32,000 nucleotides of DNA. Source: Candidatus Nanosynbacter lyticus (GTDB taxonomy: Bacteria; Patescibacteriota; Saccharimonadia; Saccharimonadales; Saccharimonadaceae). The stretch's first letter is position 1. Each line of letters begins with the position of its first letter. The notes beneath the pieces are model-generated. The model did no database searches. It saw only the letters and a program-made list of their open reading frames with translations, and was not told where the DNA came from. The DNA is taken from contig NZ_CP124549.1 in assembly GCF_030253515.1 (NCBI RefSeq), forward strand, positions 270,001 to 302,000. The letters are read 5' to 3'. Made by a program: the position numbers and the translations under genes. Below are positions 15,493 to 29,967 of the stretch, piece by piece.

Positions 15493-16539
15493 TTACTGGG
15501 CCTGAGATGGAAGAGGTGAGCGGTATCCACTTTGTCGCTCGCGTACTTCGTTATACCATCCTAATAGCTCTTGACCATGATCCCAGCCCCACGCTGAGTC
15601 TGGCAATAAATAACCAGTTACTGCATTAAACAATGGATCTGAGGTATTTACCCTGATATCCAATATTTTTAGGGCCTCTTCGGCAATATCTGCTACGGTT
15701 GCAGTCTCGTTATTGTTGAGATGATCTTCTATGAGCTTTGCCAATAGGAATGTGTAAGAGCTGTACATGACTCCTCTTGCCTCAAACTCACTCGTAAATG
15801 GCTCTGCTTGTATTGGGTTATCTCTGTCGCCATAGATATTAGGTGGTAGCTGCGCCGCCGCCGCTCCAGTAAGGTGTATTTCTACGTCCCAGAGTTTTCC
15901 TTTTAGCTCCTCATATTTTTCTTTTCTGTTGATAATGGTATCTGCCCGCTGAATATCATAATCATCTCCAGCATTGCGCCGAGCTTCATCTTCCCGCGCT
16001 TCAGCGGCAAGGACTTCTTCTGGTATATCGTCCAGATTTTTTATCACGAGTGGATATGTCTCTGCCATTACAGGATGCTCGCTATACGGGTCAGGAACTT
16101 CTATCTGCTGATCACGGTGTCCGCGCATAACTCGCGCCCAAGCTGCCTCTAGTTTTTCGGGATCAGAATTTTCATATACGGGAACACAAACACCACCAAA
16201 AATAAGTAGTACCGGCTGGCCTTCTTCTGGTGCTTCTGGGCCGTTACTGATAGTGTATTTGGCTATACCTACTGCATCAGAGAAAAATATTCTGGCATCA
16301 GCAAGGTCGTCGCCCAACGCAAGCAATGGGGCTTTTTCCAGCGGCCCGCTATACATTTCAGGTTCGCTAGGTTCAGGGGTGACTTCGGTATGATCGTTAG
16401 TGTCAACGGGTGTTTCTGGATCTGCCTGAACTTCTTCCTTGATACCCGCAGGATTTTCCTGAAGCGTGTCCCAGGGGGTTGCAGGATTATTTTGCTCTTT
16501 GCTCAGCATTCCCTCAGGTGGCTTTGGTATTCCTGTCAT
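15493..16539 (-). CDS. hypothetical acidic protein (348 aa) with a Pro/Glu-rich, probably disordered N-terminus
   Basis: ORF with the Shine-Dalgarno sequence GAGAGGAG 8 nt upstream and a consensus promoter. No motif was recognised. Confidence 0.6.
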   Translation of the reverse strand: MTGIPKPPEGMLSKEQNNPATPWDTLQENPAGIKEEVQADPETPVDTNDHTEVTPEPSEPEMYSGPLEKAPLLALGDDLADARIFFSDAVGIAKYTISNGPEAPEEGQPVLLIFGGVCVPVYENSDPEKLEAAWARVMRGHRDQQIEVPDPYSEHPVMAETYPLVIKNLDDIPEEVLAAEAREDEARRNAGDDYDIQRADTIINRKEKYEELKGKLWDVEIHLTGAAAAQLPPNIYGDRDNPIQAEPFTSEFEARGVMYSSYTFLLAKLIEDHLNNNETATVADIAEEALKILDIRVNTSDPLFNAVTGYLLPDSAWGWDHGQELLGWYNEVRERQSGYRSPLPSQAQ

Positions 16540-18765: not shown

Positions 18766-18840
18766 TGGGCCGTCGCCAAGTGGTAAGGCACCAGGTTTTG
18801 GTCCTGGCATTCGGGGGTTCGAATCCCTCCGGCCCAGCCA
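18766..18840 (+). tRNA. tRNA-Gln (anticodon UUG), CCA encoded
   Basis: TGGGCCG tc GCCAAGTGGTAAGGCA CCAGG TTTTGGT CCTGG cattc GGGGGTTCGAATCCCTC CGGCCCA G CCA. It has a 7-bp acceptor stem, a T-loop GGTTCGAATCC and an anticodon loop TT-TTG-GT. It closely parallels E. coli tRNA-Gln. Confidence 0.9.
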
Positions 18841-18890
18841 TAGAATTACACATCAACCGTCTAGTCTGTAATGGCTGGGCGGTTTATTTG
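18833..18890 (+). terminator. terminator hairpin using the tRNA 3' end
   Basis: CCCAGCCAT (18833..18841) pairs with ATGGCTGGG (18871..18879), with an inner TACA/TGTA extension, followed by cggTTTATTTG. Confidence 0.55.
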
Positions 18891-18925
18891 TCGAAGTGTT
18901 GCTACTTGGCCTATAATAAACACCA

Positions 18926-20218
18926 GTGACCAATAGTAAAGATGAAAAGTTAAAGCTGCTCTATATACAATGCCGAGACGCATATCACGAATGGCTTATA
19001 GAGCAAGGAGTAGACGATAGCTTCGGGGGTATACCATTTCCTGGATGGTTTTATGACCCCTACAACATCCCTGCTGAGTTGCTGTTTAGGGCATTGTACG
19101 GAAAAGTCAATAATAAGACCACAGCGCGCGCTGAATTTGATAGCAAGCTTCTTAGCATGGTTTATAAAAATGATACCTATGACAGAGAATCGCTAACAGC
19201 AAGGCCACAGGACTTAGAATACAAGAACTTCACTGTTTGCTTTCAAATATATTTTCGGTCAAAGACTGCCAAAGTAGATCTATTCAAAACACAACTTACT
19301 CTTTCCGGTATTAAGTTTACATGGTGTAGCGAGCGAGCGTTTTGGAAGATAGTTGATAAGGTTGGTGGCATGAATGAGTATTTGCAGTATCGAAATAAAG
19401 TTTTTCCAAAGCTCAACAACGAATTTGGTACTTACACAGTTAAGGCTCAGGTCGCCGACCTTACTGTAGAAGAGGCTGTTAATAAAGCTGCGAGAGCTTT
19501 TCAGGGTTTTATGGACTGTGTTAATGTCGTACAGTCGTTTAACCGTCAGAAACGTAAGCTCTCACACGGCCCGAACGATAATAATATGGCCATAAGTGAC
19601 GTTGGTGTGTTTGTTGCAGAGGAAGATAGCAAAGTCGAGATACTCTGGTCTAATATAAGAAGACACTCTTTGCCTTCGGAAAGTCTTAATAGTTTAGATA
19701 TTGGTAAAGAGCGTTTATATAAGGTGCTGATAAGGGCGTTTCAGGATAATAATTCTGTAGTTGCCGAGCGATTGAAGTATACTGTTATGGAATTTGCGTC
19801 TGCTTTGAGTGCGGAAGATCCAAATCTTGGCCTGTTGGGATTTTGGAGGTGTCTAGAGATTGCTACCAGGAAAGCAAACCAACAAACTCGCAAAGAAGAA
19901 GAAATACTAAATATATTCAAAAATTATCACCCTGAGGAAAAGTACTGGAGACAGCAAGGGTCTCTAATAAAGGAAGTTCGCAATACTTACGTTCATCAGG
20001 GCGTCTCTAGTGTAAAGGATACGCCCGACTACTACCTAAACTGGTCTAAGCAATACGCTGAAGCTGCCATTGGGATATTAATATGGCTTTACAATAACCG
20101 TGCGATATGGAAAGATAATGACGATATCGATATCTTTTTTGATCATTATAGCCAGTCGAGCCACAAGCTTGAGCTAGCTGGAAAGGTATTAAGGGGGCGC
20201 AGTGTTCGCGTTGCATGA
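18926..20218 (+). CDS. hypothetical protein (430 aa) with a C-terminal helical region carrying an RNxxxH (HEPN-like Rx4-6H) motif
   Basis: GTG start at 18926, 8 nt after TATAAT (18912..18917). The C-terminal region is LGLLGFWRCLEIATRK...GSLIKEVRNTYVHQGVSS, with the R-N-T-Y-V-H codons at 19979..19996. The gene is AT-rich. The N-terminal two thirds were not recognised. The HEPN call rests on a single short motif plus helical context. Confidence 0.55.
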   Translation: MTNSKDEKLKLLYIQCRDAYHEWLIEQGVDDSFGGIPFPGWFYDPYNIPAELLFRALYGKVNNKTTARAEFDSKLLSMVYKNDTYDRESLTARPQDLEYKNFTVCFQIYFRSKTAKVDLFKTQLTLSGIKFTWCSERAFWKIVDKVGGMNEYLQYRNKVFPKLNNEFGTYTVKAQVADLTVEEAVNKAARAFQGFMDCVNVVQSFNRQKRKLSHGPNDNNMAISDVGVFVAEEDSKVEILWSNIRRHSLPSESLNSLDIGKERLYKVLIRAFQDNNSVVAERLKYTVMEFASALSAEDPNLGLLGFWRCLEIATRKANQQTRKEEEILNIFKNYHPEEKYWRQQGSLIKEVRNTYVHQGVSSVKDTPDYYLNWSKQYAEAAIGILIWLYNNRAIWKDNDDIDIFFDHYSQSSHKLELAGKVLRGRSVRVA

Positions 20219-20244
20219 TTACAACTCGTGAGGCTCCAAAACTT

Positions 20245-22485
20245 CTACTTTTTCGCCTCTTGTCTCTTATTAAAGAAGTAGATAAACTGCTTTATTATGG
20301 CCTCCTTAAGCTCGGGGGATTTTTCATTTCCCACTTTTGCGATAGTGCGAATACTATTTGTCGTCGGACGCTCAAACAGTACAAGATCTACCTCCTGTAT
20401 ATTGCCTAGAGTGCCATATCGCGGATCGGATATGATAATTTGGTGCAAAGTATCAATATTGATAATGGTATCTATACTAAGCATTATATCTGGTGTCAAA
20501 TCTCTATAGGTATAATCGCTTTTGCCCATAGTATGCCAAGTTCCTACGAACTGTAGTATAAAGCCTATTACATCATCTGCTGACTGTATCTTTTTCTCTA
20601 AATACTGACTAGTCTCCTCTCTGGTGGAAAGCTCAGCCCATCTTGTGTATAGTCGGATAGATGAGCCATTTTGACTGAGTAGCGGCAATTTATCATTCTT
20701 AGCAAAGCACCTGATACACTGCAAAGCGGTAGTCTTATATTGTTGAATTTGATCTTTTTTCAGTTCAATAGAGTGATTACCCTTATTTGTACTGTAATGG
20801 ATTACGTGGTCTATAGTGCGTGAGAATGTATCTATTCTGTCTTGGTCGAAGAGATGATTAATGAGAGAGATATATCCTGTGGTCTTTTCATCTTTACTTT
20901 CACTGGCAAGTATGTCATCGATAGTAAATAACACTCTCTCTAATGCCGTAAGTGTTAGTGAAGATGATCTGGCAGTAGGCATTCCTTCGATTAAATCCAG
21001 TAGACATGTACAGAATACTATTTTGTTTTTTATGACACTGTGTCTTTTAGAGATAATCCATAGTGCTGTGGCAATATTATTCTCGTTGATTATGTGTAAG
21101 TTTTTACGAATAGACGCCTCATCAACAGAATTCGTTAGTAAATTCATAACTGCAACATCAGAGATATCCTCTATTTCGTCAAGCGATGCAAAGAACTTCT
21201 CGAAATAATAGTCTGAGGCAATCCGCTGGTGGTACCGTAGGTCATTCTCATTTATATTGCCATAGCCCTTAAGTGTATATGCAACAAAAGGAAATAATTC
21301 TTGTACTATCTCTAACCAACGATCGTCGCCTCCGAAAGTATCCTGAAGGTCCTGCTTGCGAGAGGTGTCGTCATTAATGCCATATTTAGAGCTGATTTTT
21401 TCTATTAACATATCCCCGTTGTTTTTGATTCTTTCATATAGGCCATCGTCAAATAGGCGAATAATTTCAAGTACTATGACATCAACCATATTCATCTCTC
21501 CGTGGCACAGGGGAAGTCTAAACAATAATGAATTATTCAGTCGGTTAATATCTCTCGGTGATTGTATATATGCACCCAGGTCGTGATACCCGAGTATAAG
21601 TCGGAATCGCTCTATTTCATTTTCCTCTAAGACAATGGAATGTTGCTTACAGATTGATTCAATAGTAGCCGCCAGCATCCTATTTAGCGACGACCTGCTT
21701 GCTTTGGGTAGCTCAAGAGGTATTTGTATAATTTTTTCGAGGTATTCTTGGCCGCTGGCACCTTGTGGAAGGAATTGTTCAATTGCCGATGCAACATACC
21801 TATTGTCAAATGGAAGTATATATACTATACCGGCATAGTTTGCTATTTGGGCGATTATATGCATCAGATCTGTGATGCTTTGACTTTCAAGTCTGTCTAT
21901 GTCATCAATGACAACGATCACTTTTTTACCTGATTCCTTAATTTCTTCCTGTGTTTTAATCTTAATCTTATTTATGAAGTAGCTTGATTGTAGTATCCTG
22001 CTGACATAATCCATGCTCGCTGTAATCCTACCGAGGTATATGGACGTCTCCTTGCGACCCCCAGAGTTAAGGTCGATCTCTATAGTGGAATCAATTGGAA
22101 GTTTTGCTCTACTTAATTTGCCGAAGAATCTGCTAGTTTTTTCTCGAAAGCCGCCGAAGGCTTTGTCGGTAACTTTTTCGTATATGTTTTTAAGAATTTC
22201 ATGAAAAATTGCGTCGCCGTTGCCATTAAGCTCCCAGGCATTAAGTTTGACAAGGACTGGTTTATTCTTTCTCGTGCTGTCATTAATTCTTTGTTCAATT
22301 AAATTAATAGTAGATGTCTTACCGGAGCCCCAGCTTGCATACAGGCCGATGATAAAGCTCCTCTCTTTGTCGAGTGAGTTCAGGATACTGACTATTTTTT
22401 CTGCAAAAGAAAGCCTTCCAAGTGAGTCATATTTCTTTGAATTGATCGGACTATCAGAGCTATAGGTATTCATTCTACAGATCAT
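20245..22485 (-). CDS. KAP-family P-loop NTPase (soluble form, no obvious transmembrane insertion)
   Basis: Walker A in the KAP-typical context IIGLYASWGSGKTSTINLI and Walker B KKVIVVIDDIDRLES. A long helical C-terminal region follows. The gene is AT-rich. An alternative start is ATG 22473 (MNTYSSD). Confidence 0.8.
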   Translation of the reverse strand: MICRMNTYSSDSPINSKKYDSLGRLSFAEKIVSILNSLDKERSFIIGLYASWGSGKTSTINLIEQRINDSTRKNKPVLVKLNAWELNGNGDAIFHEILKNIYEKVTDKAFGGFREKTSRFFGKLSRAKLPIDSTIEIDLNSGGRKETSIYLGRITASMDYVSRILQSSYFINKIKIKTQEEIKESGKKVIVVIDDIDRLESQSITDLMHIIAQIANYAGIVYILPFDNRYVASAIEQFLPQGASGQEYLEKIIQIPLELPKASRSSLNRMLAATIESICKQHSIVLEENEIERFRLILGYHDLGAYIQSPRDINRLNNSLLFRLPLCHGEMNMVDVIVLEIIRLFDDGLYERIKNNGDMLIEKISSKYGINDDTSRKQDLQDTFGGDDRWLEIVQELFPFVAYTLKGYGNINENDLRYHQRIASDYYFEKFFASLDEIEDISDVAVMNLLTNSVDEASIRKNLHIINENNIATALWIISKRHSVIKNKIVFCTCLLDLIEGMPTARSSSLTLTALERVLFTIDDILASESKDEKTTGYISLINHLFDQDRIDTFSRTIDHVIHYSTNKGNHSIELKKDQIQQYKTTALQCIRCFAKNDKLPLLSQNGSSIRLYTRWAELSTREETSQYLEKKIQSADDVIGFILQFVGTWHTMGKSDYTYRDLTPDIMLSIDTIINIDTLHQIIISDPRYGTLGNIQEVDLVLFERPTTNSIRTIAKVGNEKSPELKEAIIKQFIYFFNKRQEAKK

Positions 22486-22692
22486 TATAACCCACAGTAT
22501 AAAAATAGCTAATAAACTATTGGTTTCTCGGTGTAAGCACCCCCTTTAATGCACCTTTAGCAAGCTTGGCTTGTTGTATATAGCTCTCAGTTGCCAACAT
22601 ATCGCGGTCGATCATAATCATAATTCATAAGAGGCTTTACTTTTTACCACTCTAAGGCTTGAGATTTTCATGCTTAGCTAATTTGGCTTGCC

Positions 22693-22724
22693 AAGAACAC
22701 CCCTCGTATTGCATGGGTGTTCTT
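22693..22724. terminator. 10-bp stem hairpin downstream of the P-type ATPase gene
   Basis: AAGAACACCC (22693..22702) pairs with GGGTGTTCTT (22715..22724). A T-rich tail follows only on the plus strand (gtgtattctgt), so its role as the ATPase terminator on the minus strand is uncertain. Confidence 0.4.
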
Positions 22725-22738
22725 GTGTATTCTGTAGC

Positions 22739-25240
22739 TTATCTCTTCCTCGCAACATACTTATGCCATTCGGAGATGACAATTGGGATGATGAATGATA
22801 TCAGGCTGATGACGATCATGTCGCTGAGGGCGACGTGTGCGATGTGGAGGATTTCACCAAGCGGCCCAAAGAAGACCAGGATTTGCAGGACGATAGATAG
22901 GCTCATACCAGCGTAGAAGCTCTTGTTCATGACTTTCAGGCGCTTCAACAGTGACTCGTCATCGGAGCGAGCGTTGAAGGCATTGGCCCACTGGCTGACC
23001 ACTAGGGCGATGAAGGCCATGGTTTGGGCGTATGCATGTCCTTGTCGCTGTTCGAAGAATATGTAAACCGCCAAGGCGATGGCCGACATGGTGCCAGCGA
23101 CGATGACCATCCGCCAGATCATTTGGTGGCTGAGAATCGGTGCGTCGGGGTTTTCGGGCGAGCGGTTCATGGCCTGCTTTTCGCCCGGCTCCAGGCCAAG
23201 CGGAATGACCATCGAGGTGTCGGTCACCAGGTTCACCCAGAGGATTTGCACTGGCTCTAGCGGCGTCTTGATACCGATGAGCAGCGCGCCGAGCATGGTG
23301 ATCAGCTCGCCAGTGTTAGTCGACAGTAGATAAAACAGCATCCGGCGAATGTTGGCGATGATGGTGCGCCCCTCGCGCATGGCGTCGATGATGGTCTTGA
23401 AATTATCGTTGAGCAGAATGATATCGCCAGCGTCTTTGGCGATGTGCGAGCCCGATCCCATAGCCACGCCGACATGGGCATTGGTCAGTGCCGGTACGTC
23501 GTTGACGCCGTCGCCGGTCATGGCGGTGATGTGGTGCTTTTTGAGAATGGTCAGCAGGCGGTATTTTTGCTCGGGGATGACGCGGGAGAAGACTTTGGTT
23601 TTGGTGACGATGGCGTCCAACTGATCATCAGACAACTTGGCCATGTTACGGCAATCAAACACCTCGTCGCGATCCTCGACCATGCCAAGTTCCCGGCCAA
23701 TCTGATAGGCTGTCTCGAAGTGATCGCCGGTGATCATCCGCACCGACACGCCCGCTTTCAGAGCCGCTCGGATAGCCCGCGGCGCCTCTGGTCGCAGCAC
23801 ATCGGCCACGGCCACGAAGCCAGCAAATGTCAGGCGCTGCTTGCCCAGTTGATCAAAGCCAGCAATTGCCTCGTCTAGCTCACCCATCGCCAGCCCAATC
23901 ACTCGGTAGCCGCGGGCGGTCATCTCATCAAGCATCTGCTGGGCACGCTTCTTGGTGCGGGCCGACACGCGACAGGCCGCCAGGATGGCTTCGGGTGCAC
24001 CCTTGACGTACAAGCGAAACTGCCGGCCGTGATGCCAGATGGTGGCGGACATGGCGTGGGCTTGACTGAATGGCAGGTCACGAACTGGCGCGTGGCGCGG
24101 GCTGGCGCTCTGCTTGCGGGCGTATTCATTGAGAGCGATGTCCAGCGGATCGTGGCTCTTGGCGTGAGCGCGGTTGACCGCTAGCCCGATGATGCGGTCG
24201 ATGTTCTCTGTCGCCTCGTCCGGTGTCCAGGTTTGCTGAACGGTCAGTTTGTTCTTGGTCAGGGTACCTGTCTTGTCGGTGGCGATGGTGGTGATGACGC
24301 CGATGGTCTCGATGGCGCGCATCTGATGTACTAGCGCCTTTTTGGCGGCCATCCGCCGCATCCCTAGGACCAACACCACGGAGATCGCAATCGGCAAGCT
24401 CTCCGGCACGGCGCTCACCGCCAGGGCCATGACGAAGCGCAGACTCTCTAGTACATCCATGCCGCGCAGCAAGCTCAGCCCAAAGGCGACGAGGGCGATG
24501 GCCGAGACAGCGGCGATGACTCTGGTGATCAGGGTGTCGATTTTTCGCTGGACTGGGCTTTGGGTCGATTCGCGCTTCGAGAGCATGGCGAGATTACCGA
24601 ACTCGGTCTGATTGCCAGTGGCGACGACCACGCCGGTGCTGGTGCCGCTGACGACGAATGAGCCTTGAAATAGCATGTTGGTTTGCTCGTACATTTCTTT
24701 GGTGCCGGTGAGGGCATCGGTTTGTTTGGAGATCGGTAGTGATTCGCCGGTCAGCTGCGCCTCGTCTACCCGCAAGTTGGTGCTACGAATGAGGCGGATG
24801 TCGGCGGGGACTTTCTCGCCCTCGGCTAGCGAAACGACGTCGCCCGGAACTAGCTGACTGGCGTCGACGCGGGTGGTACGATTGACTCGGTGGACATCAA
24901 CTTTTTGGGCATCGTGGCGCGACAGGCTGCGTAGCACGCGGTCGGTCGAGAATCGCTGAATATAGAAAATAACGGCCGAGATGGCGGCGATGACGAAGAT
25001 AATGATGGCGTCAATGGCCTCGCCGTGCCAGAGGCTGATGATGGCGGCGATGAGCAGGACGAGCATAAAAATGTCGAGGAATGGCTCGAGGATGATGCGC
25101 CAGAGCGGTTCGGATTGGACTTTGATGATATTGAGGCCATAGCGTTTTTGGCGGCGCTGGACTTCGGCCGCGCTCAGGCCGCTACTCGAGGAACCCAGTC
25201 GCCGCAGTACCTCGTCGCTTGATGATTGATAAAAATGCAT
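22739..25240 (-). CDS. P2-type cation-transporting P-type ATPase (Ca2+/Mg2+-ATPase-like)
   Basis: Cation_ATPase_N-like LSAAEVQRRQKRYGLN, then TGES (LTGESLPISK), PADIRL, the phosphorylation site DKTGTLT, MITGDH and TGDGVNDVPAL. There are about 10 transmembrane segments. TATAAT (reverse complement of 25247..25252) lies 6 nt upstream of ATG 25240. Confidence 0.9.
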   Translation of the reverse strand: MHFYQSSSDEVLRRLGSSSSGLSAAEVQRRQKRYGLNIIKVQSEPLWRIILEPFLDIFMLVLLIAAIISLWHGEAIDAIIIFVIAAISAVIFYIQRFSTDRVLRSLSRHDAQKVDVHRVNRTTRVDASQLVPGDVVSLAEGEKVPADIRLIRSTNLRVDEAQLTGESLPISKQTDALTGTKEMYEQTNMLFQGSFVVSGTSTGVVVATGNQTEFGNLAMLSKRESTQSPVQRKIDTLITRVIAAVSAIALVAFGLSLLRGMDVLESLRFVMALAVSAVPESLPIAISVVLVLGMRRMAAKKALVHQMRAIETIGVITTIATDKTGTLTKNKLTVQQTWTPDEATENIDRIIGLAVNRAHAKSHDPLDIALNEYARKQSASPRHAPVRDLPFSQAHAMSATIWHHGRQFRLYVKGAPEAILAACRVSARTKKRAQQMLDEMTARGYRVIGLAMGELDEAIAGFDQLGKQRLTFAGFVAVADVLRPEAPRAIRAALKAGVSVRMITGDHFETAYQIGRELGMVEDRDEVFDCRNMAKLSDDQLDAIVTKTKVFSRVIPEQKYRLLTILKKHHITAMTGDGVNDVPALTNAHVGVAMGSGSHIAKDAGDIILLNDNFKTIIDAMREGRTIIANIRRMLFYLLSTNTGELITMLGALLIGIKTPLEPVQILWVNLVTDTSMVIPLGLEPGEKQAMNRSPENPDAPILSHQMIWRMVIVAGTMSAIALAVYIFFEQRQGHAYAQTMAFIALVVSQWANAFNARSDDESLLKRLKVMNKSFYAGMSLSIVLQILVFFGPLGEILHIAHVALSDMIVISLISFIIPIVISEWHKYVARKR

Positions 25241-28836: not shown

Positions 28837-29967
28837 CTAGTCCATAACGATTAAACCGCTAGTTGACATTTCGGTCAGTAGTATTGGCAGCAGTTCCTTA
28901 TTCCTAGATAGCGTCAGAGCATACTTCTTCTTGCTGTAGTACAACAGTCCTCTATCTGTTAGTTCTCTTAGTTTTCTTGACCGCCGCCTATCGTTAGCTG
29001 AAGAATTACCGCCGAAAATCATAGAAACATCTCGAGCCTGAATCACGTCTTTTTTAACAGCAACTTCTAAAATTTGCCTTTCTTCGTCAGATAAAGCTTT
29101 TATTTCGGCTGCTCGTTTCAGGGTTGGTAGAATTACTTTCTCAACAACTTCTTTTTTATCGAGGAGCTGCATGGTTCGCTTGATTTCTTCCTTTATTCCT
29201 TCCGCAACATAAAGACACCACTTTTCAAGCAGCGAATCATCTCCTGTTTCTATTCCTCTATCAGCTACACTTAGCATTTCATAATATCGTCTGCGATCAA
29301 CGCAAAAAATTGAAGATGGATTCAATACGGACGCATCGTGAATAAACCCTTTTTGAACCAGCATAGCGTAGGTAAAGAGCCTAGCTACACGGCCGTTTCC
29401 GTTCTCAAAAGGATGAATCAGCGTAAATCTATGATGAGCAAGAGCTATATTGATGATATCAAACTGAGGCGCTTCGCGTATGTTTACTGTGTTCAGCAAG
29501 TCCTCAAGCTCTTCCTTAACCTTCAGATGACTTGTTGTTTTTGCTGAGCTGCCATTAATGATATTATCTCTGGTCTTAAATTGTCCAGGATGTTCCGCGC
29601 CGTCTTTATCAAGAGGTAGATCCTTCACTACAATTTTATGCAGCTCGCGGATCATTGCCAATGTGATGTCATCGCCAGCTTTTATCGTTTCGTCTATAAA
29701 ATTCAGACCTCTACGGATATTCAGAAACTGCTTTACTTCATCAACTTCTTCTTCCTCGCTATTTTCTATCGAGCTAATCGCAGCAGAAACAAGGGTAGTG
29801 TTATTCCCCTCAATCCGTGCGGAGGCGACACTTTCCATAAGATATATAATATTTTTAATATCATAAAATATCCAAGGCGGTGTCGAGCCTTGTATATAAC
29901 GATTGCGCATATTCTCAATCTCAAAAATAGTATTAGTGATAGGAGAATCAAAACGAGGATTTATCAT
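28837..29967 (-). CDS. Fic-family protein (AMPylase-type motif) with an N-terminal inhibitory-helix motif and a C-terminal winged-helix-like region
   Basis: Fic motif HPFENGNGRVARL (HxFx[DE]GNGRxxR) and an N-terminal SARIEGN ([ST]xxxE[GN]). The gene is AT-rich. TATGAT (reverse complement of 29974..29979) lies 6 nt upstream of the ATG. Confidence 0.85.
   Translation of the reverse strand: MINPRFDSPITNTIFEIENMRNRYIQGSTPPWIFYDIKNIIYLMESVASARIEGNNTTLVSAAISSIENSEEEEVDEVKQFLNIRRGLNFIDETIKAGDDITLAMIRELHKIVVKDLPLDKDGAEHPGQFKTRDNIINGSSAKTTSHLKVKEELEDLLNTVNIREAPQFDIINIALAHHRFTLIHPFENGNGRVARLFTYAMLVQKGFIHDASVLNPSSIFCVDRRRYYEMLSVADRGIETGDDSLLEKWCLYVAEGIKEEIKRTMQLLDKKEVVEKVILPTLKRAAEIKALSDEERQILEVAVKKDVIQARDVSMIFGGNSSANDRRRSRKLRELTDRGLLYYSKKKYALTLSRNKELLPILLTEMSTSGLIVMD

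Follow-up and report, generated by a model that had tools for sequence, protein, structure and literature searches.

The closest described counterparts of the genes considered here belong to two kinds of antiphage protein. ApeA is a single-gene abortive-infection system in which a HEPN domain acts as a tRNA anticodon nuclease and the HEPN arginine is essential for defence; the protein consists of an N-terminal domain, a Mid domain and a split HEPN domain with insertions, assembles into a doughnut-shaped decamer or dodecamer, is activated by a ligand in a pocket distant from the active site, and has HepT as the nearest structural neighbour of its HEPN domain (bioRxiv 10.64898/2026.01.26.701840). 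Genes of the ApeA family are known to be embedded in restriction-modification operons (Anantharaman et al. 2013, PMC3710099). KAP NTPases whose C-terminal regions are uncharacterised likewise act as single-gene antiphage proteins, and KAP NTPase domains have been proposed as regulators of linked antiphage modules (PMC13552941). PifA of the F plasmid is described as excluding phage T7, with membrane permeability lesions (Schmitt et al. 1991 as cited in PMC13552941), and phage restriction is perhaps not its primary function (PMC13552941). Here we describe an islet of about 3.9 kb in the chromosome of Candidatus Nanosynbacter lyticus, contained in a stretch of 32,000 nucleotides (contig NZ_CP124549.1, positions 270,001 to 302,000, forward strand) that we call the window and whose own numbering is used throughout. 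The islet lies between a tRNA-Gln(UUG) gene and a P-type ATPase gene and holds two convergent genes, one for a 430-aa protein (ORF A) whose C-terminal region resembles the HEPN domain of ApeA, the other for a 746-aa KAP-family P-loop NTPase (here KAP) that resembles PifA. Saccharibacteria are ultra-small episymbionts with genomes smaller than 1 Mb, in which phage resistance is poorly charted.

We consider it likely that the islet is horizontally acquired cargo of a defence hotspot between tRNA-Gln and the ATPase gene, and that its two genes encode independent single-protein defences, probably acting by abortive infection. An earlier note, made from the sequence alone, had nominated the segment as a candidate defence locus, and three results speak for the nomination: ORF A has profile similarity to the HEPN defence family ApeA, the two genes are found together elsewhere, and the islet is accessory, in a slot that holds known defence systems in related genomes.

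The variability of the slot is apparent from comparisons with relatives. The flanking P-type ATPase has relatives of 91–97% identity in Candidatus Saccharibacteria (TM7) genomes, including a complete 856-kb chromosome of oral taxon 488; the closest complete genome found was CP128407 (856 kb). We mapped the ATPase, tRNA-Gln, pilin and RumA genes in 52 related loci. In syntenic loci, tRNA-Gln lies only about 500–550 bp from the ATPase stop codon in L017, L019, L024, L025 and L045, which we regard as empty sites, about 600–820 bp away in L026 and a second clade, and 1.25–4.7 kb away in the remaining loci. ORF A and KAP occupy the slot in a single syntenic locus, L016, which has a 97%-identical ATPase. 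Where the slot is filled in sister genomes, its GC is low like that of the islet itself (0.32–0.44), and tRNA-Gln is kept in the syntenic sister genomes whether the slot is filled or not. The idea that tRNA-Gln is part of the cargo, or linked to the putative nuclease at this locus, was rejected because the tRNA gene is present whatever fills the slot.

Several occupants of the slot in sister genomes are recognisable defence systems. They include Gabija (GajA at 4.9e-106 and GajB at 2.4e-48; L034, L037, L054), a CBASS cyclase with a SMODS domain (3e-100) and its 2TM effector (2.7e-62; L018, L021), a PDC-S19/DUF3644 protein (5e-120; L040), a HEPN_RiboL-PSP protein (3.8e-8; L038, L039), and a helicase of 1,048 aa (PADLOC model C3a193 at 2.9e-161; L043, L031). 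Another occupant, a 1,204-aa protein with no match in Pfam or PADLOC (L020:12943–16557, plus strand, and also L032, L033 and L044), is a candidate uncharacterised defence gene. Since the sister genomes carry differing defence systems at this position, the slot between the ATPase gene and tRNA-Gln behaves as a core defence hotspot. With its empty sites and alternative cargo such as Gabija and CBASS in sister genomes, the islet is accessory, as the earlier note had supposed, and is situated in a hypervariable defence hotspot of oral Saccharibacteria. The arrangement resembles the core defence hotspots of Pseudomonas aeruginosa (cDHS, PMC10250203) and of P2/P4 (PMC9122126), which are likewise fixed slots between core genes and beside a tRNA gene with cargo that varies or is missing, and differs from them in belonging to the genome of an ultra-small episymbiont; no description of this hotspot for Saccharibacteria was found in the paper collection searched. 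With tRNA-associated genomic islands the islet shares the compositional deviation and the presence/absence polymorphism, but not the integrase or the direct att repeats matching the 3' end of the tRNA gene.

The KAP protein matches the Pfam KAP_NTPase family (PF07693) at 3.5e-44 and the PADLOC PifA model (PDLC02361) at 7.7e-62, the latter match pairing residues 5–663 with profile positions 2–678 of 720. Other KAP proteins represented in PADLOC, QatA and PDC-S20, score far below PifA; ORF A receives only noise-level matches in the same PADLOC check of the locus, which the earlier note had put forward as a means of verification. For a direct comparison we used plasmid sequences: a tblastn search against plasmids retrieved IncF plasmids, and the match on pEC14III is the gene that follows pifC directly, which identifies it as pifA. 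BLASTP aligns KAP with the pEC14III protein (746 and 748 aa) over 687 columns with 23% identity (E = 2e-23), pairing the Walker A motif ASWGSGKTS with GKWGAGKTS of PifA, and the Walker B segment VIVVIDDIDRLE with FIVVLDDLDRLE, where the PifA core reads FIVVLDD. No 19-residue hydrophobic window of transmembrane grade occurs in KAP (Kyte–Doolittle maximum 1.41) or in PifA (1.2), which agrees with the description of KAP in the earlier note as a soluble NTPase without the transmembrane insertion. The C-terminal region of KAP extends about 400 aa beyond the NTPase domain, and full-length homologues at 37–41% identity exist in other contigs and genomes, including that of Enterococcus innesii.

Judged from these alignments, KAP is a homologue of PifA and thereby adds a member to an established defence family. 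It shares with PifA of the F plasmid the KAP P-loop NTPase domain, a near-equal length, the near full-length match to the profile, the aligned Walker motifs, and the lack of a transmembrane insertion. The genetic setting is different. There is no pifC-like gene upstream of KAP, where only 253 bp of non-coding DNA precede the ATPase stop codon; its neighbours are the HEPN-type gene and the ATPase gene; and it is a chromosomal gene of a TM7 episymbiont, where pifA belongs to an enterobacterial conjugative plasmid. A further comparison can be made with EF_KAP and its relatives, which have the same KAP domain followed by a large C-terminal region without a recognisable domain and are associated with recombinase-bearing elements. 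EF_KAP, however, has two transmembrane helices and reportedly does not act by abortive infection, whereas KAP of the window has no transmembrane segment; and the recombinases that mark those elements are small serine recombinases (PMC13552941), whereas the cassettes related to the islet adjoin a large one, in which the domains Resolvase, Recombinase and Zn_ribbon_recom are recognised. On plasmids, Ec4ApeA (IncHI2) and pifC-pifA (IncF) each adjoin the anti-phage gene ppl (L100, L101), so that the defence neighbourhoods of ApeA and PifA on plasmids are comparable.

The relationship of ORF A to ApeA is more distant and was assessed by comparing alignments of the two families. The Ec4ApeA gene was taken from its plasmid, 61 homologues were collected and 29 of them aligned, and this alignment was compared by hhalign with an alignment of 47 members of the ORF A family. 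The comparison yielded a score of 35.7 (E = 0.0014) over 213 collinear columns, in which ORF A residues 167–401 correspond to ApeA residues 254–555 and the pairs E311/E381, R352/R508, N353/N509, H357/H513, W307/W377 and T314/T384 are formed. Comparisons with randomized alignments gave considerably lower scores: 19.9 for the reversed ApeA alignment, a mean of 19.7 (sd 2.8, maximum 26.4) for 60 shuffles in 12-column blocks, and a mean of 16.0 (sd 2.6, maximum 25.3) for 60 column shuffles. The true score exceeds all 120 of the 120 shuffles, with z of about 5.7 relative to the stricter null. The alignment also suggests how the two proteins differ, as ORF A from about residue 167 on pairs with the ApeA region preceding HEPN, presumably the Mid domain, and an insertion of about 80–100 residues that separates the WxxLE and RNxxxH helices in ApeA is missing from ORF A. 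Two simpler comparisons were less informative. Against a single ApeA sequence hhalign assigned a probability of 3.7%, which is too weak, and the 47-member profile searched against the PDB sequences produced Ec4ApeA (9hxm) as the sole meaningful match at E = 1.5, with WRcLE opposite YWSALE and RNtyVHqG opposite RNTIVHNA, which we treat as a lead and not as evidence.

Homologues of ORF A were found in 13 clusters of a set of 5.8 billion sequences and as 63 representatives at E ≤ 1e-3 among 1.84 billion proteins. Nearly all are 410–455 aa long, none is named, and their sources, where identifiable, are Saccharibacteria and other Patescibacteria, with one soil member carrying a Patescibacteria-style locus tag. 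A homologue with 55% identity (P0003) comes from human oral metagenomes; no family member was found on viral contigs. In an alignment of 13 members the segments LGFWRCLEI (304–312) and R352-N-x-Y-V-H357-x-G are invariant, N353 included, whereas in the 47-member alignment, which reaches down to 16% identity, the only invariant residues are E311, R352 and H357. These three residues look like an active-site signature, and R352-N353-T-Y-V-H357 has the form of the HEPN superfamily motif Rx4-6H with a polar residue after the arginine. Per-member scans of the 47 sequences against Pfam gave HEPN_Apea (PF18739) at 8e-5 in one member, while the commonest weak match was MauJ (16 of 47, best 3.3e-4), located at the WRCLE helix. 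A single Cas13-ApeA match at 0.026 was also obtained among the 47. A separate Pfam MauJ protein of 273 aa (L106:825–1646, plus strand) contains FFWHTL and ARHAIAH, the latter an Rx4H motif, and is encoded 4.4 kb upstream of a KAP homologue. A literature search found no link between MauJ and HEPN, and MauJ itself may be an unrecognised HEPN family.

In the AlphaFold2 (AF2) model the full-length ORF A (pLDDT 74) mixes helices and strands, whereas the C-terminal 174 residues modelled alone (pLDDT 86, pTM 0.83) form eight helices, with RNxxxH at the end of the helix spanning residues 341–358. Residues 1–256 are presumed to be a sensor or regulatory part. Taken together, the alignments and the models characterise ORF A as a compact and distant ApeA-like HEPN protein by prediction, not as a canonical member of the ApeA family. 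With ApeA (Ec1-Ec4ApeA, 9hxm, PF18739) it has in common a non-catalytic N-terminal region, a HEPN domain (in ORF A a predicted one) at the C-terminus, and within it the helix W-x-x-L-E as well as the motif R-N-x-x-V-H. It differs in its length (430 aa compared to about 600 aa), in lacking the three-domain layout with a split HEPN, in being missed by the ApeA models of Pfam and PADLOC, and in belonging to a family that comes, where the source is identifiable, from Patescibacteria and not from Proteobacteria. Since ORF A is shorter and its N-terminus is unaligned, sensing, oligomerisation and target choice may differ from those of ApeA. With HepT of the MntA-HepT toxin-antitoxin system ORF A has the Rx4H motif in common and would share a helical HEPN core, with structural matches that are not significant; unlike HepT, ORF A has no adjoining gene for an MNT-type antitoxin and bears the 256-residue N-terminal extension. 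The ORF A family appears to be a rare and previously unannotated variant of the ApeA-type HEPN kind, a new one that current models do not detect.

The gene neighbourhoods of the family offer a further point of likeness, in that ApeA and the ORF A family are both found in defence islands, beside or within restriction-modification operons. We examined 37 family loci, which represent about 13 independent contexts. In L012 the stop codon of a gene for a type IIG MmeI-like restriction-modification enzyme (5.4e-127) overlaps the start of the ORF A relative (524–3565/3565–4926), and L014 shows the same overlap with a relative of that gene truncated at the end of the contig (1–1647/1647–3008); the overlap of stop and start codons suggests co-transcription with the restriction-modification enzyme in this clade of 42–44% identity. 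DpnII and HpaII restriction-modification systems lie beside the family member in L010, and other neighbours encode HEC-09 NYN, PDC-S11-like, DUF2726, MazG-like, SLFN-helicase/GIY-YIG and Bro-N proteins. A large serine recombinase (Resolvase, Recombinase, Zn-ribbon) is a neighbour in L008, L071 and L072 and in the distant L084 and L086. An 87-aa ORF upstream of distant members was considered as a partner and rejected, as it encodes an MtN3/semiSWEET-type membrane protein and is probably an unrelated neighbour.

Family members are located just downstream of tRNA-Gln(UUG), tRNA-Gln(CUG) or tRNA-Thr(GGU) in separate lineages, the last two being represented by L076–L079 and L082 together with L001, L073, L074 and L084. 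Proximity to tRNA genes is curious for a putative tRNA nuclease, the simplest explanation here being hotspots adjacent to tRNA genes. In L001 (11414–13054, minus strand), and also in L073 and L074, all from oral TM7, a gene for a 546-aa protein is convergent with the 55%-identical ORF A homologue after tRNA-Gln(CUG). This protein has no Pfam match and a weak match to Cas3-HD (4e-5), with a gene for an Mbeg1-like lipase next to it, and may represent another unknown defence gene.

The two genes of the islet are also found together elsewhere. L008, L071 and L072 contain the same convergent cassette with a 26-bp junction, the ORF A being 68% and the KAP 71% identical to those of the window; in L071 and L072 the cassette directly succeeds tRNA-Gln(UUG) and RumA, with a serine recombinase gene after it. 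An independent association is present in L012: downstream of the ORF A relative (44% identity), in the same orientation, lies a KAP gene whose product is 25% identical to KAP of the window and matches the PifA model at 4e-68. A phmmer search detected no KAP gene in the remaining contexts of the ORF A family (about 10 independent ones), and an hmmsearch detected no ORF A relative in the loci of four KAP homologues at 37–41% identity (Enterococcus and other contigs). The co-occurrence that the earlier note had proposed to check exists, in the cassettes and independently in L012, and each gene is also found without the other. The serine recombinase next to the cassette is intact in L008 (422 aa) and reduced in the other two contigs (119 aa in L071:5723–6082 and 141 aa in L072:4537–4962), which suggests that the delivering element is decaying. 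From these related contigs we propose that the cassette would have been delivered by a large-serine-recombinase element and that the recombinase would since have been lost here.

A number of results weigh against the interpretation we prefer, most of them concerning ORF A. A Foldseek search of the full-length model against the PDB gave no match with E below 0.1, and the C-terminal domain model gave none with E below 1. The solved ApeA structures are absent from the best 50 matches of the ORF A models. The weak and non-significant tail comprises, for the full-length model, Csm6 and IRE1, and its entries are Csm6 (5yjc, 6tug), IRE1 (7bmk), HepT (7bxo, 6m6u, 6m6w), the sacsin HEPN domain (3o10), 2hsb and 1wwp, the last of which we take to be a HEPN-domain protein as well; for the C-terminal model, HepT, Csm6, sacsin and AF_0298 all have E above 1, HepT with a target-normalised TM of 0.40–0.42. 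ORF A itself yields only noise in Pfam, PADLOC, NCBIfam and PHROGs (MauJ at 0.13, PDC-M50A at 0.015) and matches no HEPN model, the hhalign probability of the family comparison is only 17%, and the protein is about 180 residues shorter than ApeA, with the first approximately 166 residues unaligned. On the side of KAP, the identity to PifA is low (23%), and on the side of origin, the window contains no integrase ORF, no copy of the tRNA 3' 25-mer even at 3 mismatches (both as the earlier note had observed), and neither direct nor inverted repeats of note at the ends of the islet, so that the proposed delivery route is drawn from relatives only. The structural results in particular would fit an alternative in which ORF A is not a HEPN nuclease and its E...RNxxxH residues belong to a helical domain unrelated to ApeA, with some other role, for instance in binding or in another kind of catalysis, leaving the PifA homologue as the sole recognisable defence gene; the hhalign probability of 17%, the lack of a direct match of the window protein to a HEPN-family model and the predominance of MauJ among the weak matches of the family point the same way. 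Yet the three invariant residues pair exactly with the conserved E, R and H of ApeA, in the same order and on the same helices, with an alignment score that none of the shuffles reaches, and one member of the family does match HEPN_Apea. The MauJ protein examined bears an Rx4H motif of its own. Moreover, the validated Ec4ApeA, used as a control, has no Pfam match and reaches only 3e-8 with the PADLOC ApeA model, so insensitivity of the models is to be expected and the absence of direct matches for ORF A weighs little. We consider this alternative quite improbable. For the C-terminal region, the HEPN similarity proposed in the earlier note accordingly holds at the level of profiles (E = 0.0014 for the family, 8e-5 for one member); at the level of structures, no significant Foldseek match to a HEPN structure was obtained.

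It is also conceivable that ORF A and KAP form one cooperative two-component system, with the PifA-like KAP as the sensor or switch of a HEPN RNase effector, or the reverse. The retention of the cassette and its 26-bp junction at 68–71% identity in three contigs, the second association with a different PifA-model KAP in L012, the location of the Rx4H-bearing MauJ protein near a KAP homologue in L106, and the proposal that KAP domains regulate linked antiphage modules (PMC13552941) are all consistent with such a system. On the other hand, about 10 independent ORF A contexts have no KAP, the sampled loci of KAP homologues have no ORF A relative, and there is no conserved operon, the genes being convergent here and co-directional in L012. 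The junction is unstructured and less conserved than the coding sequence, ApeA and PifA each function as a single gene, and defence genes cluster anyway, which makes two associations in about 13 contexts not compelling. We regard a cooperative system as unlikely. A bolder proposal, to which we give a distinctly small chance, adds to a real KAP–HEPN partnership, in which the NTPase gates or complements the RNase, a previously unrecognised, Patescibacteria-centred branch of ApeA-like anticodon nucleases with a new compact sensor that replaces the N-terminal domain of ApeA; if true, it would mean a KAP–HEPN immune module working in ultra-small episymbiotic bacteria. Since most relatives of either gene occur without the other, we favour two adjacent and co-inherited single-gene systems that would act independently. 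The remaining explanation, that the islet is the remnant of a decaying mobile element and that its genes serve the element through addiction or exclusion of competitors, or are inactive passengers, draws on the large serine recombinase, the ParB-methyltransferase and the PDC-S11-like gene that adjoin related cassettes, on the recombinase being cut down to fragments in L071 and L072 and missing from the islet described here, and on the doubt about the primary function of PifA (PMC13552941). We judge it very improbable, as both ORFs are intact and full length with conserved catalytic residues and Walker motifs, at 94–98% identity in conspecific contigs and 68–71% in the sister lineage, which points to purifying selection; the same chromosomal slot carries bona fide defence systems in sister genomes; and element-borne defence and host defence are compatible with each other.

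The boundaries of the islet are marked by base composition and by the extent of homology to sister genomes. The GC content is 0.395 in the islet (18892–22738) compared to 0.494 in the left and 0.562 in the right flank, and 0.37–0.41 over 19000–22500 compared to 0.52–0.62 on either side. GC3 is 0.41 in ORF A and 0.39 in KAP, compared to 0.59–0.74 in the genes of the flanks (RumA, pilin, ATPase, ABC). The sharp drop in composition after tRNA-Gln that the earlier note reported is therefore real, and its spot counts of G+C (17/60 at 21001–21060, 38/60 at 24001–24060) are exact. Sister genomes are homologous to the window at the DNA level up to 18840/41 (18891 for L020), and homology restarts only inside the ATPase gene, whose stop codon at 22739 bounds the islet on the right. 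As homology reaches this far, tRNA-Gln and its terminator are core sequence. The earlier note was right to place a tRNA-Gln with a terminator before the islet, as ARAGORN, Rfam and the hairpin with its T-run agree, and its right edge at 22738 stands; its left edge at 18766 does not, since the tRNA gene and the terminator belong to the core genome. On this basis the segment that we take to be foreign extends from about 18841/18892 to 22738. The two genes are convergent as the note stated, with a gap of 26 bp in place of its 27, and the motif EVRNTYVHQG begins at residue 350 of the 430-aa protein, which leaves the numbering of R352 and H357 correct. The features are listed in Table 1.

Table 1. 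Annotated features of the islet and its left border, in coordinates of the window
Feature	Position	Strand	Basis and remarks
tRNA-Gln(UUG), anticodon TTG	18766–18840	+	ARAGORN; Rfam tRNA 61.8 bits; borders the variable slot on the left
Terminator-like hairpin of the tRNA gene	18855–18884	+	12-bp stem, then T-run
Promoter-like site upstream of ORF A	18888–18917	+	TTGTCG, 18 nt, TATAAT; 10/12 consensus matches, consensus match only
ORF A, 430 aa, GTG start	18926–20218	+	ORF list
ORF A residues 1–256, alpha/beta N-terminal and middle region	18926–19693	+	AF2 model with mixed helices and strands
ORF A residues 257–430 and stop codon, predicted all-helical ApeA-like HEPN domain	19694–20218	+	domain model; hhalign
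ORF A W307-R-C-L-E311 helix motif	19844–19858	+	E311 invariant across the family; motif invariant or nearly so in the 13- and 47-member alignments
ORF A R352-N-T-Y-V-H357, putative Rx4H HEPN catalytic motif	19979–19996	+	R352 and H357 invariant in 47 sequences
Convergent junction, 26 bp between both stop codons	20219–20244		coordinates
PifA-like soluble KAP-family P-loop NTPase, 746 aa	20245–22485	-	ORF list; PADLOC, Pfam
KAP Walker B V189-IVVIDD195	21901–21921	-	translation; PifA alignment
KAP Walker A (P-loop) A50-SWGSGKT57	22315–22338	-	read from translation
253 bp preceding the KAP gene, at the right end of the islet	22486–22738		no homology to sister genomes

An alternative start of the KAP gene at Met5 would give a protein of 742 aa. 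The region shows no enrichment of promoter-like sites, with 15 found compared to 11.8 expected. The 26-bp junction was considered as a regulatory element and rejected; it is homologous among the cassettes but less conserved than coding DNA, with an RNA structure z of -0.83. Elsewhere in the window, a second patch of low GC (GC 0.40, GC3 0.36) coincides with a 376-aa Fic/DOC-family gene (28837–29967, minus strand; Pfam Fic at 1.8e-14), which may be another foreign gene of the toxin or defence type. A 348-aa acidic Pro/Glu-rich ORF (15493–16539, minus strand) has no Pfam match and a GC3 of 0.38, below that of its neighbours.

The analogy with ApeA leads us to speculate how ORF A could work. The protein would dimerise through its HEPN domain and so form a composite RNase site, which would be kept inactive until the N-terminal and middle region senses a cue of infection. 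Once activated, ORF A would cut RNA, most likely the anticodon loops of tRNA, and translation and phage production would be halted as a consequence. KAP may in turn sense phage components, with binding or hydrolysis of NTP triggering growth arrest or death, similarly to what is supposed for PifA of F and T7.

If this interpretation is correct, the ORF A family, which is missed by Pfam, PADLOC, NCBIfam and PHROGs, would extend the ApeA type of HEPN immunity and expose a blind spot of the programs that search for defence systems, and the compact 430-aa ORF A could serve as a minimal model for the gating of ApeA-type nucleases. The slot next to tRNA-Gln would also provide a simple handle for mining new defence systems, such as the 1,204-aa gene present in four genomes. 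Current concepts are not overturned by these observations; rather, known kinds of defence are extended into an understudied lineage, in which the genomes of oral TM7 appear to keep a dedicated slot of fast turnover beside tRNA-Gln, sampling systems such as Gabija, CBASS and PifA that are known from free-living bacteria.

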